Shown piece by piece: positions 6,783 through 59,011 of a stretch of DNA of 64,000 bases. The DNA is taken from NCBI GenBank assembly GCA_963705725.1, contig CAVPKM010000016.1:32001-96000 (forward strand), read 5' to 3'. Below the pieces are notes generated by a model that saw only the letters and a list, made by a program, of their open reading frames with translations, ran no database searches and was not told where the DNA came from. Position 1 is the stretch's first letter. Every line of letters starts with the position of its first letter. The position numbers and the translations under genes were made by a program. This DNA is from an uncultured Gammaproteobacteria bacterium. Its GTDB lineage: Bacteria; Pseudomonadota; Gammaproteobacteria; UBA6002.

Positions 6783-8573
6783 TCAAGGATTCATGCTTGG
6801 ATCATCACTCGAGATTGAAGAATAAGGCAATAGATTAAGCTCTATAATGGTATCTGCATCTTCTTGAGAGGATTCTTCCCTATCCGAGTGGAAAGTAAAT
6901 GAAGAAGAACAATCTTTTTTAGCAAATACTTCGCTTAAGGATTGGGTTTCATGAAGGATAGAAAACGGTTTGCCGCTGGAGTGAATTCCAAACTGTATCG
7001 TGGTTAAAATGCTTTCCAATCTATTAAAAATACCAATTAGGTCCTGAATAGAGCGTTGTTCGACTTGTAATTGAGCCAAAGTATTTTCTAAATCTCTTAA
7101 GATTTGCTCAGTTATTTGGTAATCCTCATAGGCTCCAAGAGGTTTTAGTATTTTTTCTTCTAAACCTTGTATTTTTTCCAAAATTAATTCAGCCTCTTCA
7201 ATACCATTTTTCCAATCATCAGATTTTATTTTGTTAGGAAAACGAAAATAATAATCATATTCTTGCATAAATGCCGCACAAATCGTGAATAACAGACCTA
7301 AACCTATCGGAAATCCCACCCCAAAGCCTATGGCTGCCGCGTTATAAATTGAAGGAGCATCATTCGAGATTGACGTTTCTAGCACAGGAGAACTGTTATT
7401 TGCCCTCACGCCTAGCCATATCTCGATAGCTATAAAAAGCGGTAAGCTAGCACAAAAAGCTAACCCACCCGCCATACACGGTGAAATAATTAATTCTGAA
7501 TCTTGAGCGTTTAGCTCTGCAATAAAATTTTTAATTTCATTTAAAGCCTTGTCCAGACTTTTTAAATCCAGTATTAATTGCTTATACGTTAAGGTTGGCT
7601 TATTGCTGGATTCCTCGCTACTTTCTTCATCGCTGTCAATTACCAAGACACTTTTTCTTTTTTTCGAAAGATGATTTGAAAGACGAGATTTATAAAGGGG
7701 AACCAACTCCAGAATGCCTTGTGGTAAACGCTGAACTTCTATCCGCTGATCAAACTCTACTTTTGCTCCTGCTAAAGCAACTAATTTATAAGAGGCTGCT
7801 AAGCGGTAATAGTGATCAAGTCGCACTGGATTATTTTTATCGATAATCACCTGCTCTCGGTAAAGCGCCAAAAATTTTTCTTTAAATGCCGTATCTGCAA
7901 ACTGCGAAAGTAAGGCAACTTGCTTCTCAAAAGGAAACGTTAAAATCTTACCGAATGGCGTTTGCTCTTTATTGTTTGAAATGGTTAAATCCGCTCCTTG
8001 TTCGATTAATAAGGCAACAAGTGCTTCATTACAGTCAGCCGGTTCAACCGGAGTGGCTAATTGCAAGGGGGTATTACAGCAATGATCTGGTCTATTGATA
8101 TGATTGATAGCTTCAGGCTCTTGATTGATTTTCTTTAATAAATTTTTAGCAATAATTATATTTTTATATTTGACTGCAGCATGCAAATGCGTTTGGCCTT
8201 CAGCATAACTTTGTAGCCAAATTTTGTACCCTGGCTGATTGGGATCAAGCTGCCGGCTTGAGATTTCAAGCAGGTTATTTGCTATGTCCACGAAGTTTTT
8301 TTGAATGGCATAATATAAACAATCTTTATTTTCCCCATTTTTTCTAAAAAGCAAATCGTTATTATCTCCCTGTAACTCTAATAGTCGATCCGCCACTTTT
8401 TTTAAACTGTTCTCTAACGCAGTGCTCAAGAAGCTTTTTCCATTGTCATCATAAGAATTAAGACGAGCTGCCGGATCTTTTCGAATAAGGGTAATAAGCG
8501 TCAGCGCCTGTTCGGTATTTTGTTTCTCAATTGCTTGCTGTAATGCTGTTTCTAGTATATTTCTATCCTGCAT
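6783..8573 (-). CDS. Ankyrin-repeat protein with two transmembrane helices and coiled coil (effector candidate)
   Basis: Ank-like units 'GKSFLSTAL', 'NKDCLYYAIQK', 'GQTHLHAAVK', 'NTPLQLA...LLIEQGADLTISN'; two hydrophobic segments; acidic Ser-rich C-terminus. Confidence 0.8.
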   Translation of the reverse strand: MQDRNILETALQQAIEKQNTEQALTLITLIRKDPAARLNSYDDNGKSFLSTALENSLKKVADRLLELQGDNNDLLFRKNGENKDCLYYAIQKNFVDIANNLLEISSRQLDPNQPGYKIWLQSYAEGQTHLHAAVKYKNIIIAKNLLKKINQEPEAINHINRPDHCCNTPLQLATPVEPADCNEALVALLIEQGADLTISNNKEQTPFGKILTFPFEKQVALLSQFADTAFKEKFLALYREQVIIDKNNPVRLDHYYRLAASYKLVALAGAKVEFDQRIEVQRLPQGILELVPLYKSRLSNHLSKKRKSVLVIDSDEESSEESSNKPTLTYKQLILDLKSLDKALNEIKNFIAELNAQDSELIISPCMAGGLAFCASLPLFIAIEIWLGVRANNSSPVLETSISNDAPSIYNAAAIGFGVGFPIGLGLLFTICAAFMQEYDYYFRFPNKIKSDDWKNGIEEAELILEKIQGLEEKILKPLGAYEDYQITEQILRDLENTLAQLQVEQRSIQDLIGIFNRLESILTTIQFGIHSSGKPFSILHETQSLSEVFAKKDCSSSFTFHSDREESSQEDADTIIELNLLPYSSISSDDPSMNP

Positions 8574-11604: not shown

Positions 11605-11624
11605 ATTCCCATATTAATGGGAAT
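11605..11624. promoter_or_regulatory. Palindrome in the prlC / triple-barrel divergent promoter (possible operator)
   Basis: ATTCCCAT-ATTA-ATGGGAAT, immediately followed by TGCTATAAAAT (extended -10-like). Confidence 0.4.
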
Positions 11625-11692
11625 TGCTATAAAATGTCACCGATTCTTCCCGCCTCTTTTCTCTAAGACATGATGGTTCATAAGGATATAAG

Positions 11693-14600
11693 ATGAAGAA
11701 ATGGATTCAAATACTGGCTTGCCTGGGTTATTTCACGCCGGTATTTGGCACAGCACATGATACCTTTATGGTAACCGGCGATGAGCTACAGGAAGTTTCA
11801 AACTTTCCACATTATTTGCAAACCCCAAATTTTTTTACTCATGTTTACCCAGAAAACATCAACCCAAATTTAGTGTTAATTACCAGGACAAATCGCGGAT
11901 TTGCGTTTGGTGTCACCGGATTTTCCTCGCGAATCTTTGATAATCAAACTGATTATGCCATCGTTGATTTTGCCGATGCCTCTGGAGCGGTTTTTACACC
12001 CAGTTTAGCCTCGAGCATTAAGGCCATTCCTCCTGAATCCCATTTTGGTTATGGCGCTTACCTAGGATATGTTTATCCCTATACCGGTAAAGATATTTTT
12101 TTAGATTTTTCAATTATCGATGGGGCGCGCTCAAATACAACAGATAAGCCATTTCATGGGTCTATATGGACTCCCTTGGCGCTTTATGATCGCAGTATTA
12201 CTGCAAAAGGGGTAATGGCAAGATACTCGACAAATATTCAACAAGCGAAGCTGCTCGTTGGAGAAGAAATACGTCCCGGCACACGCTTTCGGTTTCACCC
12301 CTCTTTCGGTGCAAAATATGCCGAGATCAATCGCAAATTGTCAACCAGCTATCTTGAAGCCGCTGGCATATTAGAAGATCCACATGGCAATACGGTGGTC
12401 AGGGAAAAAAGCGAATTTCGAGGAATTGGACCCGCAATTCAATTAGATGGCGCCTATTTTTTTGCGCCACATCTGGGCCTAACAGCCCATGCGTTGACAG
12501 CCATTATAGTTGGAACGATCCAAAGTAGTATACGCGTCAATGATCTTCAAGTCCCTCCACTTGAAGCGGTTCCCCCTTCTAACACCCAAATTAATTTAAA
12601 ATCCACTGACCGCACCGTACCGAATATTACTGGAAAAATTGGGCTGGTTTACGAATATCCTTTATGCGGCAGCTTAATGAAAATTGATTTGGAAGTAGGT
12701 TATCAGTTCGACCACTTTTTTAACGCGATTGATATTTATCGCAGCACAGGAAGCGTGATTCTTGCAGATTCCTTAGTCACCACCGCCTCTACCACTTATA
12801 TTGATACTCCGCTTCATATTAAACGGCCCAACGATTTGACACTGGCAGGCCCTTATCTTTCCTTCGGCATCTCTGGCATCTCATGTCCAAGTGATAGTGT
12901 AATCGATCCTGTCTGTCTCACCGTTCCAAGACAAGAAGGCGGCTTCGTGTTTGGTATCGGCCCTGTTTATTATCGAATTCAAACCAATCAACAAGATTTT
13001 TCTATTTCTGAACCCAATTTATTGCAACCGGTTAATATCGCCCCCATCGATCTTTTATCCCCACAACCGCTTTTTATACCTAGCATACAATCATCACTTA
13101 AAAATGTGAGATCAAATAATGCAGGAGGCTTGCTCATCACTGGCGGATATATTTTTCGCGATTCGCCTTATGATATTACTGCCCATTTTGAGGGTGCGAA
13201 AACTCAGAATCGGAAAACGGCTAAGCAATCTAATGACAATAAATCCGTCATCATTTGGCCAATATTATCGATTCCTTTCTTAGACCCCAGTGCCAACCGA
13301 GTTTTTGCAAGCGATGCTAAAACTAATGCCAAGTATAGCTATAGCGAATTCCATGTTGACATTGGTCAAGCGATTAACGGCGATTCTCTTTTTTGGGCCA
13401 GACTATTTGCAGGAATACAGTATGCGCTGATAAAACAAAATTTTAATGTCACTTATGATAATCTGACCACTGTGCCAATCTTTCCTGGGACAGGAAGCAC
13501 CAATGTTCCGATTCCCCTCTTTTTTCCTCAAGAACAAATTGTTCAGGAAAGTAACTTTAGCGGAATTGGTCCACGTGTTGGTTTGGATTTTGGCCTACCA
13601 TTTGGCAATCTGTCCCTGGTTTCTGAACTGGCAACTGGCTTTTTAGCAGGAAATGTCGATGCCAGTTATAAAGATGCAGTCCAACCCGGATTTTTACCCA
13701 ATCCTGTACTAGGAGGTCAACCCATCCCGGTCATTCCCTTCCGGGTTCTGGGGACAAAAGTGGAAGGAGATCACCCCTATTCACCTTTTTTTGATTTAAA
13801 AATTGCGCTGGCTTACACCTGGAATTTTTTCTCAGGTACTAAATGGTCGGTGGAACTCGGTTATCGGGCGATCCATTACTTTAATGCCCTCACCACCTTT
13901 ACCCATCTTACTAACAACGCTGCAGTTTTTGCTAAGCAGATTGGAGACGTGAGTTTAGATGGCCCCTATCTTAACTTAACTGTTTTTGGCTTCGATGCTT
14001 GCCCACCTGATTGCGCTCCTAAAGGACCTTTCTGTGTCTATGTTCCAGAGCTTAAAGGGGGGATTGAATTAGCTTTTGAATGGCTTTATGCAAAGCCACA
14101 CGCTACCAACATTGACTTTGGCATTCTTGATCCTACGCCGGTCATTATTCCAGTCGTTGAGACCTCCCCTCCCGGTATTTATCCGCAAGGTATTCCGCTA
14201 AATCCAAGCGCCGCCTCAGCCATGAAGGTGCTAAGCCCAAGATCTCACTCTGGTGGCAGGGTGCATTTGGGTTATATTTTTCCTTTGACTTCAAACGACC
14301 TTTCAGTCAATGCCACCCTTTTCAATGAAAAAAATTACAAATTCATCACGGCCAAAACTCCCGGCGTGATTTGGACAATTAACAACGGTAATGTTGGAAT
14401 TCAAAATCCCTTAGCCCAATCTTTTTTTCCGGTACTTGCTAATCGCGCCGACGTCAGTGTTAAATTCAAATGGTTAACAGATAATGTCGAGTTTGGAAAA
14501 CGGATCAAATTTCATCAACTCATGACAAGATTTTTTGCAGGCCTCAGCTATGCAAAAATTAAGGAAGGGATCACCATTGTTTACAGTGAAGGGCTCACCA

Positions 14601-15046
14601 ACTTTTTGAATCCTACCGCCACCTTCGTTCCCCTTGATACGATTAACCAACTTAATGATTTTTGGGGTGTGGGCCCTCGTTTCGGCCTAGCTGGAGATTT
14701 AGCGTTGGGTTGTGGCTTTTCTTTAATCGGCCAAATAGCGACAGATTTACTCGTTGGCAAATTCGATAGCCATTATATTGAGCAGTCCTCATATGGCCAG
14801 GTGGATGTGTTAAACCCAAACAAACGAAATCGCTTTGTGCCAGAATTAGATGGCAAATTCGGCGCAGCTTATACTGTTGTGTTAAAAAATTGTTCTCAAG
14901 TCAGTCTCGAAGGGGGCTATAGCGCGAATCATTACTTTAAGGTCAAAGATAGTCTGCGCTTTACTGGCGCTGTTTCAAGCTTTCTTAAACAAAATCAAGA
15001 TATTAGCTTTAGCGGTCCCTATGTAAGGCTGCAAATTGATTTTTAG
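11693..15046 (+). CDS. Outer-membrane protein with three tandem Lpg1974/Legionella-MOMP-like beta-barrel domains
   Basis: Signal peptide; three repeats of F.G[IV]GP...[VS]P....K....Y...E.GY...H[FY]F...D....GPY; C-terminal beta-signal ending in Phe. Confidence 0.8.
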   Translation: MKKWIQILACLGYFTPVFGTAHDTFMVTGDELQEVSNFPHYLQTPNFFTHVYPENINPNLVLITRTNRGFAFGVTGFSSRIFDNQTDYAIVDFADASGAVFTPSLASSIKAIPPESHFGYGAYLGYVYPYTGKDIFLDFSIIDGARSNTTDKPFHGSIWTPLALYDRSITAKGVMARYSTNIQQAKLLVGEEIRPGTRFRFHPSFGAKYAEINRKLSTSYLEAAGILEDPHGNTVVREKSEFRGIGPAIQLDGAYFFAPHLGLTAHALTAIIVGTIQSSIRVNDLQVPPLEAVPPSNTQINLKSTDRTVPNITGKIGLVYEYPLCGSLMKIDLEVGYQFDHFFNAIDIYRSTGSVILADSLVTTASTTYIDTPLHIKRPNDLTLAGPYLSFGISGISCPSDSVIDPVCLTVPRQEGGFVFGIGPVYYRIQTNQQDFSISEPNLLQPVNIAPIDLLSPQPLFIPSIQSSLKNVRSNNAGGLLITGGYIFRDSPYDITAHFEGAKTQNRKTAKQSNDNKSVIIWPILSIPFLDPSANRVFASDAKTNAKYSYSEFHVDIGQAINGDSLFWARLFAGIQYALIKQNFNVTYDNLTTVPIFPGTGSTNVPIPLFFPQEQIVQESNFSGIGPRVGLDFGLPFGNLSLVSELATGFLAGNVDASYKDAVQPGFLPNPVLGGQPIPVIPFRVLGTKVEGDHPYSPFFDLKIALAYTWNFFSGTKWSVELGYRAIHYFNALTTFTHLTNNAAVFAKQIGDVSLDGPYLNLTVFGFDACPPDCAPKGPFCVYVPELKGGIELAFEWLYAKPHATNIDFGILDPTPVIIPVVETSPPGIYPQGIPLNPSAASAMKVLSPRSHSGGRVHLGYIFPLTSNDLSVNATLFNEKNYKFITAKTPGVIWTINNGNVGIQNPLAQSFFPVLANRADVSVKFKWLTDNVEFGKRIKFHQLMTRFFAGLSYAKIKEGITIVYSEGLTNFLNPTATFVPLDTINQLNDFWGVGPRFGLAGDLALGCGFSLIGQIATDLLVGKFDSHYIEQSSYGQVDVLNPNKRNRFVPELDGKFGAAYTVVLKNCSQVSLEGGYSANHYFKVKDSLRFTGAVSSFLKQNQDISFSGPYVRLQIDF

Positions 15047-58204: not shown

Positions 58205-59011
58205 TTATTTTCTGACTTGTTTAATTGCTTGCTTCACACTATCCGTTGTCACTACGCCTGGTAAGTATTCTACATGTGTTCCAATGCGATTCCCGATAAA
58301 AAAGGCAGGGGTACCAAGCAGGCCGAGATCTTGTGCTAATTTGAAATTATCGTTTAATTGATTTTCAATCTCTTTATTCTTCATGTCAGTTTGCAATTGC
58401 TGAACATTCAGACCTACTTTTTTTGCCGTTTCATTCACTTTTTCATCAGTTAAAGGAAGTGGCATTTCAAGTAATGCTCGGTGAAAAGCCAGAAATTTGT
58501 CTTGTCCTTGTTTGATTGCTGCAATAGATGCTTGCGCTGCATATTTTGAAGAGCCGCCGAATATAGGCAGTTGTTTTACCACAATACGAACTTTATTGTC
58601 TGATTTAATCAGAGAGTCGATCACCATAGACATCTCACGACAATGGGTGCACTGATAATCTAAAAATTCTACAACTGAGACATCTCCTTCCTTGTTACCC
58701 ACTGTTGGGCTACTTAGAGAATTAAATAAAGGCTTTGCATTTTTTAAGACCGCTTGTTGGGTCTTAGTTTTTGCTTTTGCAAATTCTTGATCTTGATAAG
58801 CTTGAGAAGCCTCTACTAATACTTGGGGATTTTTAACCAGATAGTCATGAACGATATTTTGTATTCCTTTAACTTGTGCATCATTAAAATTAGCTTGGTT
58901 ATTAACCAAACTTTTAGGCAAAGGAGTGGGGGGAGTAGTTGTCGCTGCCATTAAGTTTTGGCTAGTAAGTAGAGCAAGGGCAAGTAGCCCAGTAGAAAAT
59001 ATTGACCTCAT
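58205..59011 (-). CDS. Com1/DsbA2-like periplasmic thiol:disulfide oxidoreductase
   Basis: Signal peptide, N-terminal 'IVHDYLVKNPQVLVEA', active site 'DYQCTHC', cis-Pro loop 'GLLGTPAF'. Confidence 0.88.
   Translation of the reverse strand: MRSIFSTGLLALALLTSQNLMAATTTPPTPLPKSLVNNQANFNDAQVKGIQNIVHDYLVKNPQVLVEASQAYQDQEFAKAKTKTQQAVLKNAKPLFNSLSSPTVGNKEGDVSVVEFLDYQCTHCREMSMVIDSLIKSDNKVRIVVKQLPIFGGSSKYAAQASIAAIKQGQDKFLAFHRALLEMPLPLTDEKVNETAKKVGLNVQQLQTDMKNKEIENQLNDNFKLAQDLGLLGTPAFFIGNRIGTHVEYLPGVVTTDSVKQAIKQVRK

Follow-up and report, generated by a model that had tools for sequence, protein, structure and literature searches.

The closest described counterpart of the protein reported here comes from Legionella pneumophila, where it is 'porin I' of the Dot/Icm machine seen in situ, a trimer of 10-stranded barrels that was assigned to the MOMP (major outer-membrane protein) Lpg2961 (PDB 9NH1; PMC12501162). 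Chlamydial MOMP is likewise a trimer of 10-stranded barrels and, according to a published report, is no porin (PMC13254160). On bioinformatic grounds, Solan et al. defined multi-barrel outer-membrane proteins as a class in 2021, with 34 architectures, 186 families and linkers of a median 22 +/- 13 residues (PMC8346858). In one of them, the fused OMPLA dimer PLA1-PLA1 (12-12), the interchain interface is proposed to have given way to interdomain contacts, leaving the copies free to diverge (PMC8346858); a 2026 review restates this contact idea and, in its passage on the subject, adds no cases (PMC13721041). Here we describe a gene at positions 11693-15046 of a 64,000-nucleotide stretch of DNA (the window; contig CAVPKM010000016.1) from an uncultured environmental relative of Coxiellaceae. 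It almost certainly encodes three barrels in a single chain, and overall we consider it likely that the product forms a covalent, fixed-order, asymmetric pseudo-trimer of 10-stranded MOMP-type (PF05150) barrels.

Like Lpg2961, the window protein belongs to PF05150 and is predicted to have the 10-stranded fold; Lpg2961 is trimeric in situ, and the window protein has three units. Lpg2961 is a 288-residue single barrel that forms a non-covalent homotrimer, whereas the window protein has three barrels of 335-358 amino acids (aa) in one chain, joined by Cys/Pro linkers, and its loops are longer and a conserved N-terminal segment is added. With the multi-barrel proteins of Solan et al. it shares several complete barrels per chain and short linkers, here of 12 and 16 residues, but, with a single exception, every architecture reported there that has three barrels or more is built around 8-stranded barrels (PMC8346858). 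Chlamydial MOMP resembles it as a 10-stranded trimer with periplasmic cysteines for envelope cross-linking in an intracellular bacterium; it differs in belonging to another family (the window chain has no Pfam chlamydial-MOMP match), in being unfused and in its shared extracellular cap (PMC13254160). The gene and its product are laid out as follows.

11693..15046, + strand: whole open reading frame P0001, ATG start, 1117 aa and a stop, no interruption
11682..11686, + strand: Shine-Dalgarno-like AAGGA, 6 nt upstream of the ATG, by direct reading of the sequence
11693..11755, + strand: signal peptide, aa 1-21, with MKKW, a hydrophobic run and G-T-A, by reading of the sequence
11756..11878, + strand: conserved N-terminal periplasmic segment, aa 22-62, from pairwise identity among orthologs
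11879..12883, + strand: barrel unit 1, aa 63-397, ten predicted strands (70-82 ... 375-396)
12884..12919, + strand: linker 1, aa 398-409, 12 residues, C398-P-x-x-x-V-I-D-P-V-C408
12920..13993, + strand: barrel unit 2, aa 410-767, ten predicted strands (417-431 ... 746-767), long Pro-rich loops
13994..14041, + strand: linker 2, aa 768-783, 16 residues, D-A-C770-P-P-D-C774 ... C781
14042..15043, + strand: barrel unit 3, aa 784-1117, ten predicted strands (790-804 ... 1104-1116)

The three-fold repeat is real and far beyond chance. PF05150 (Legionella_OMP) matches the whole chain in three stretches (E 2.9e-110, 368.1 bits), and every unit on its own exceeds the gathering score of 25.4 bits: unit 1 with E 1.4e-27 and 96.8 bits (profile positions 37-279 of 281), unit 2 with E 7e-37 and 127.3 bits (1-279) and unit 3 with E 5.9e-45 and 153.8 bits (2-280). 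These near-full-length matches are the three non-overlapping ones expected by a preliminary description of the locus, which had been made from the letters alone. A hidden Markov model (HMM) that we built from 105 single-barrel relatives recognizes units 1, 2 and 3 with E 9e-68, 2.7e-55 and 8e-66. Self-BLASTP of the whole chain listed the diagonal alone, and the excised units were compared by BLASTP and hhalign instead: BLASTP aligned them with each other at E 4e-13, 8e-20 and 5e-30, and profile-profile comparison gave a probability of 100 with E 1e-56 to 1e-65. Their mutual identity of 22-29% bears out the earlier view that the units are strongly diverged. All 12 motif strings previously listed as recurring in the same order were found, at aa 240/620/988, 309/697/1049, 334/721/1073 and 381/752/1103; the Gly of the GPY motif stands at 386, 757 and 1108 as stated there, and the chain ends in ...LQIDF. 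A multi-barrel protein is recognized by at least two non-overlapping full-length matches to a barrel family joined by short linkers, and this chain has three.

Other family assignments are sparse. A weak Pfam match to DUF2715 (22.2 bits over the full chain, aa 182-277) overlaps PF05150 and carries no further information. NCBIfam yielded no families on the whole chain, none on the two units submitted to it, and on three single-barrel relatives merely two unrelated chance matches (E 0.13-0.14); this library apparently has no model for the Lpg1974 label used in the preliminary description. In the ESM Atlas, PF05150 and BBP7 clusters were of single length only. We also considered a 16-18-stranded general porin of the OmpF/OmpC type and rejected it: Pfam gave PF05150 and the weak DUF2715 match alone, each unit has ten strands, and no OmpF/OmpC-type chain is among the 49 Foldseek matches listed.

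To describe the fold, we used an AlphaFold2 model of the whole chain built on a 16-row alignment, which reached a mean predicted local distance difference test score (pLDDT) of 76.8 and a predicted template modelling score (pTM) of 0.82. DSSP assigns ten long strands to each unit, in three sets, with turns of 2-6 residues on one side alternating with long loops on the other. Because short turns alternate with long loops, each unit reads as a barrel with periplasmic turns and extracellular loops. The different Pro-rich loops of the preliminary description are present, as stretches with 4-8 Pro per 21-37 residues, and model topology places them among the extracellular loops. In Foldseek searches against the PDB, the best three matches were chains 9nh1_A, 9nh1_B and 9nh1_C (E 3e-13 to 1.5e-12, template modelling (TM) score 0.78-0.81 on the target); the next barrel-sized matches were the 10-stranded pOmpT, OmpT and Pla, at TM 0.45-0.52. 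By sequence, phmmer found 9nh1_A as the sole PDB match (E 1.8e-6, over aa 925-1113). OmpT, Pla and OpcA (TM 0.45-0.57) share the ten long strands protruding from the membrane; in contrast to the window protein they are monomers, act as proteases or adhesins, have no sequence relationship to it and are not fused. Each unit is thus predicted to be a 10-stranded barrel as in 9NH1. By the definition of pTM, a value of 0.82 on a three-domain chain of 1117 aa should mean that the mutual positions of the domains are predicted with confidence, and we find it reasonably probable that the barrels pack like those of 9NH1. The AlphaFold check proposed beforehand therefore came out in two parts: three ten-strand units matching 9NH1 were obtained, and a triangular packing is indicated only indirectly, by the pTM.

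The same three-unit chain occurs in 19 further metagenomic proteins (30-51% identity). A large protein collection contains 15 full-length homologs of 998-1111 aa and 39-51% identity, 14 of which cover 99-100% of the query; every one comes from a metagenome and is annotated at most as 'hypothetical protein'. The more distant triples P0019, P0020 and P0022 are 34-35% identical. An exhaustive representative search returned 1085 relatives at E <= 1e-3, and the best 150 of these include six full triples (P0007, P0016, P0019, P0020, P0022 and P0027) and seven full doubles of 604-715 aa, most others being single barrels of ~350 aa. The earlier statement that the family is normally single-domain thus holds for most relatives and fails for the double-barrel members. 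Across all 20 proteins of at least 998 aa (20/20), the single-barrel HMM finds three domains. Orthologs also occur in records of Coxiellaceae bacterium UBA6002 and of an uncultured gammaproteobacterial metagenome-assembled genome (MAG). Five genomes of the same order, family and genus were compared, and three carry an intact triple (the window genome, a 1.58-Mb MAG that is 92% complete, G001 and G002); none was found in G003 (77% complete), and no triple turned up outside this genus when 400 genomes spread across the class were sampled.

This distribution bears directly on whether the long frame could be an artefact of a misassembled tandem array or of missed stops, or could encode one giant barrel of ~30 strands. 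Tandem single-barrel PF05150 arrays do occur, four genes in G279 and two in G211, and very large single barrels are known (PMC8346858). However, the frame is open here and in 19 independently assembled proteins, with linkers that carry no signal peptides. Since the linkers are open and conserved in 19/19 other proteins, misassembly and missed stops are excluded, which answers the concern raised in the preliminary description. In place of read-level evidence for the linkers we rely on their conservation across these other assemblies: one soil-metagenome DNA run (0.13 of words) gave three short contigs at 13262-13975, none spanning a linker. As to a giant barrel, each unit covers the whole PF05150 profile and has a TM of ~0.8 to a closed 10-stranded barrel, which is impossible for a sector of a 30-stranded barrel. 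We regard both variants as extremely improbable. The run search listed no RNA sequencing runs containing the gene.

The linkers are as well conserved as the barrels they join. Identity among orthologs is 57% for linker 1 and 48% for linker 2, next to 45%, 43% and 48% for units 1, 2 and 3; because all three barrels are conserved to a similar degree, no unit is decaying. Neither linker contains a stop in any family member (19/19), and no signal peptide was found in the linkers. The mature protein has eight cysteines, all of which model topology places in linkers or periplasmic turns and which are conserved in 11-19 of 19 orthologs: in linker 1, Cys398 in 17/19 and Cys408 in 12/19; in linker 2, Cys770 in 18/19, Cys774 in 19/19 and Cys781 in 11/19. 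If this topology is right, the periplasmic cysteines might pin down the linkers or form cross-links in the envelope. Elsewhere in the window, a DSBA-family thiol:disulfide oxidoreductase match (E 1.1e-23) lies on the - strand at ~58223-58675 (G000:C16:90223-90675), an observation relevant to conserved periplasmic cysteines. Each unit opens with V-P-x-x-x-G-G-F, as do single-barrel relatives directly after their signal peptide, and a single-barrel paralog in the same genome has a Cys cluster, RCDVCVPSYC, at the position matching the linkers. Since the linkers match the N-terminal segments of single-barrel proteins, they represent mature N-termini kept from the ancestral single genes, minus their signal peptides.

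The same correspondence between linkers and mature N-terminal segments would suit a polyprotein precursor, exported once and cut in the linkers by a periplasmic protease to give three distinct single barrels in equal amounts. Against such processing, the linkers are short, Pro/Cys-rich and conserved as the barrels are, and the internal units lack the terminal aromatic residue expected at the free C-terminus of an outer-membrane protein. We know of no precedent and judge this route very unlikely. A free C-terminus only in the last unit had been noted before, and a hydrophobic end is indeed confined to unit 3: it finishes with Y-V-R-L-Q-I-D-F before the stop, and of 19 orthologs 9 end in F, 6 in L and 4 in I. 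Where unit 3 has its terminal Phe, units 1 and 2 have a conserved Gly in the ortholog alignment.

At the other end of the chain, the signal-peptide cleavage site was inferred from the -3/-1 rule; the window protein has G-T-A where most orthologs have A-T-A. A lipoprotein reading was rejected (Cys10 in only 8/19 orthologs, no lipobox). The segment aa 22-62 that follows has a mean pairwise identity of 55% among orthologs and no family match; its final ~15 residues are similar to linker 1. Model confidence is low at the N-terminus, with pLDDT <50 for aa 1-56.

To reconstruct how the units arose, we computed a FastTree phylogeny of 181 units, of which triples supplied 60, doubles 16 and single-barrel proteins 105. 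Units from 19 triples group according to their place in the chain, with support of 98 for the third (T3) and 90 for the second (T2), and 18/19 first units (T1) fall in one clade (support 98). All 57 family units, together with two of the fragment P0021, form one clade with support 96. An IQ-TREE analysis of a reduced set of 88 rows agrees with this picture; it comprised 13/20 triples, 7 full doubles and 35/105 singles (5 picked as FastTree neighbours and 30 at random, with the long-branched P0164 left out). There, 36 family units form one clade (SH-aLRT 91), T3 has support of 98, T2 of 92, and 11/12 T1 units are in a clade with 99. Because the units cluster by position and all lie in one clade, a single-barrel gene was triplicated once, before the lineage radiated; the unit phylogeny suggested earlier thus resolves to one old triplication. 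The order of events, as judged from these sequences, was probably ((1,2),3).

A further triple has a separate history. P0027 (metagenomic, 1051 aa) has three units that are each other's nearest kin (support 100) and 48-58% identical; they sit among other singles, with the single-barrel P0157 as nearest relative, and their linkers lack Cys. Its model again shows three ten-strand units (pTM 0.72, TM 0.79-0.84 to 9NH1). On sequence evidence, P0027 is a second, independent and younger triplication. The doubles form a separate, third fusion family (D1 support 99 and D2 support 100 in IQ-TREE). Two doubles were seen in sampled genomes: one of 661 aa at L009:890-2875 (G173), with two full domains (E 5.6e-33 and 3.3e-39), and one at L014:442-2040 (G059), whose first domain is truncated at the called start. 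Tandem single-barrel PF05150 genes that are unfused and encode separate signal peptides were seen as a run of four in L008 (G279:C1:220500-227000) and a pair in L010 (G211). It is plausible that the arrays in G279 and G211 represent the pre-fusion state.

Whether the linked barrels close upon themselves is a distinct matter. They might instead be strung like beads, forming no closed intramolecular trimer and pairing with other chains or with the two single-barrel paralogs in an outer-membrane lattice. Several observations fit such an arrangement: the genome has two further single-barrel PF05150 genes, double-barrel relatives cannot close a trimer alone, the periplasmic cysteines are conserved, and Legionella trimers are reported in ordered arrays (PMC12501162). 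However, pTM values of 0.82 and 0.72 in two independent triples point to one defined, compact arrangement; fusion has twice stopped at exactly three units, the trimer number; and linkers of 12-16 residues hold neighbouring barrels close. We consider an open string unlikely. Since the single-barrel relative with a solved structure (9NH1) is a homotrimer, 'genetically fused trimer', the phrase of the preliminary description, is a sound reading, and the best explanation of the gene is internal triplication of a single-barrel gene whose product was a homotrimer.

If the chain does form a covalent pseudo-trimer, its assembly may be pictured as follows. The lone N-terminal signal peptide would take the chain through Sec. 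The barrel assembly machinery (BAM) would insert the barrels in succession, each via its own last strand with its GPY-x-hydrophobic alternation, while the 12- and 16-residue linkers would remain periplasmic. The barrels would then pack side by side in fixed order, like the Lpg2961 trimer in PDB 9NH1. Fusion would fix a 1:1:1 stoichiometry and the cyclic order, and this fixed order would have let the protomers diverge to 22-29% identity and gain different Pro-rich surface loops. The widest form of this proposal is evenly balanced in our judgement: that a homotrimer became a single-chain tandem trimer at least twice independently, giving an obligate asymmetric heterotrimer with specialised surfaces that BAM builds from internal, non-terminal signals.

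Several points weigh against a closed pseudo-trimer or some part of it. The chain is known here from its gene sequence and a model, and for packing, barrel closure and lumen size the evidence consists of the pTM, the DSSP assignment and the Foldseek scores. The 16-row alignment is shallow, and AlphaFold2 may carry a prior from porin trimers. A complex prediction for units 1 and 3, made without controls, gave a best score of 0.27 against a mark of 0.32 and speaks neither for nor against the closed form. The internal units lack a terminal aromatic and have Gly at the equivalent position, and BAM would have to recognise them without it. The second triplication, P0027, is one sequence from one contig. 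Double-barrel PF05150 proteins exist, and one is the sole PF05150 gene in G059 (98% complete); a simple 'one chain equals one trimer' logic does not account for the doubles. Finally, in G004 (L012 / L001, G004:C45) stops and frame changes at ~aa 61-150 and ~aa 253 interrupt the ortholog's unit 1, with units 2 and 3 kept in an 811-aa frame; unit 1 may be dispensable, if this break is real rather than a sequencing error.

As to function, the protein is likely to serve the envelope as one of its main structural and surface components. The preliminary description had foreseen three different pores, and this part is not supported: each barrel has 10 strands rather than 16-18, and the analogous chlamydial MOMP is reported not to be a porin (PMC13254160). 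The barrels may have channel activity.

The gene stands alone amid housekeeping genes, and its surroundings imply no partner gene. On one flank are oligopeptidase A and RpiA, and on the other a NUDIX protein, PCMT, a TolC-like OEP and KdtA. L002 shares the oligopeptidase-RpiA neighbourhood, and L001 does not. A promoter scan stayed at chance level (10 sites against 8.5 expected, including a promoter-like site at 11606-11635), as did a terminator scan (4 against 4.3), and GC content gave no island signal. Elsewhere in the genome, the two additional single-barrel PF05150 genes lie at G000:C8:14378-15667 (- strand) and G000:C9:13216-14379 (+ strand); their open frames span 480 and 453 aa, the loops of both are unusually long, and an N-terminal Cys cluster is present in the first. 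Outside the window, the genome also carries a type IVB secretion cluster:

G000:C1:72000-80617 (L015), at the contig end: Dot/Icm type IVB secretion cluster
L015 2505-2957, - strand: IcmW
L015 5931-7085, - strand: DotB-like ATPase
L015 7099-7962, - strand: DotC / T4SS_TraI
L015 7962-8492, - strand: DotD

Within the window, positions 6783-8573 (- strand) hold a 596-aa ankyrin-repeat open reading frame (Ank_2, E 2.8e-9). Such repeats typically occur in the effector-like proteins that intracellular bacteria produce. Judged from these sequences, the Dot/Icm genes and the ankyrin protein fit an intracellular, Legionellales-like lifestyle. By analogy with L. pneumophila, a MOMP-trimer setting around the Dot/Icm outer-membrane complex may exist in this organism.

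With respect to earlier work, the locus is nearer to described systems than the preliminary description supposed, the multi-barrel class having been described in 2021 (PMC8346858). The main text of that paper contains no 'Legionella', 'PF05150', '10-10' or '10-stranded', and a prior listing in its supplement is possible. In open-access full text we found no description of a fused MOMP or a fused porin trimer. The multi-barrel class is thus already known, and it is the 10-10-10 MOMP fusion for which no description was found.

Provided that it is produced and remains whole, the chain would be a rare natural case in which a trimeric outer-membrane protein has become a single polypeptide by a fusion that evolution has kept. 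No applied or safety importance is apparent. For the evolution of oligomers, it would represent an escape from the constraint of identical subunits, with units at 22-29% identity that are nevertheless similarly constrained. BAM would face a three-barrel substrate of ~120 kDa, with two internal 'last strands', for assembly and release, and the protein would offer a natural substrate for studying how BAM lets go of a finished barrel and turns to the following one. For structural work, it would provide a scaffold of fixed stoichiometry for MOMP-type trimers, which were seen in situ only in 2025. The recurrence of fusion, together with the doubles, suggests that the family as a whole has access to this route.

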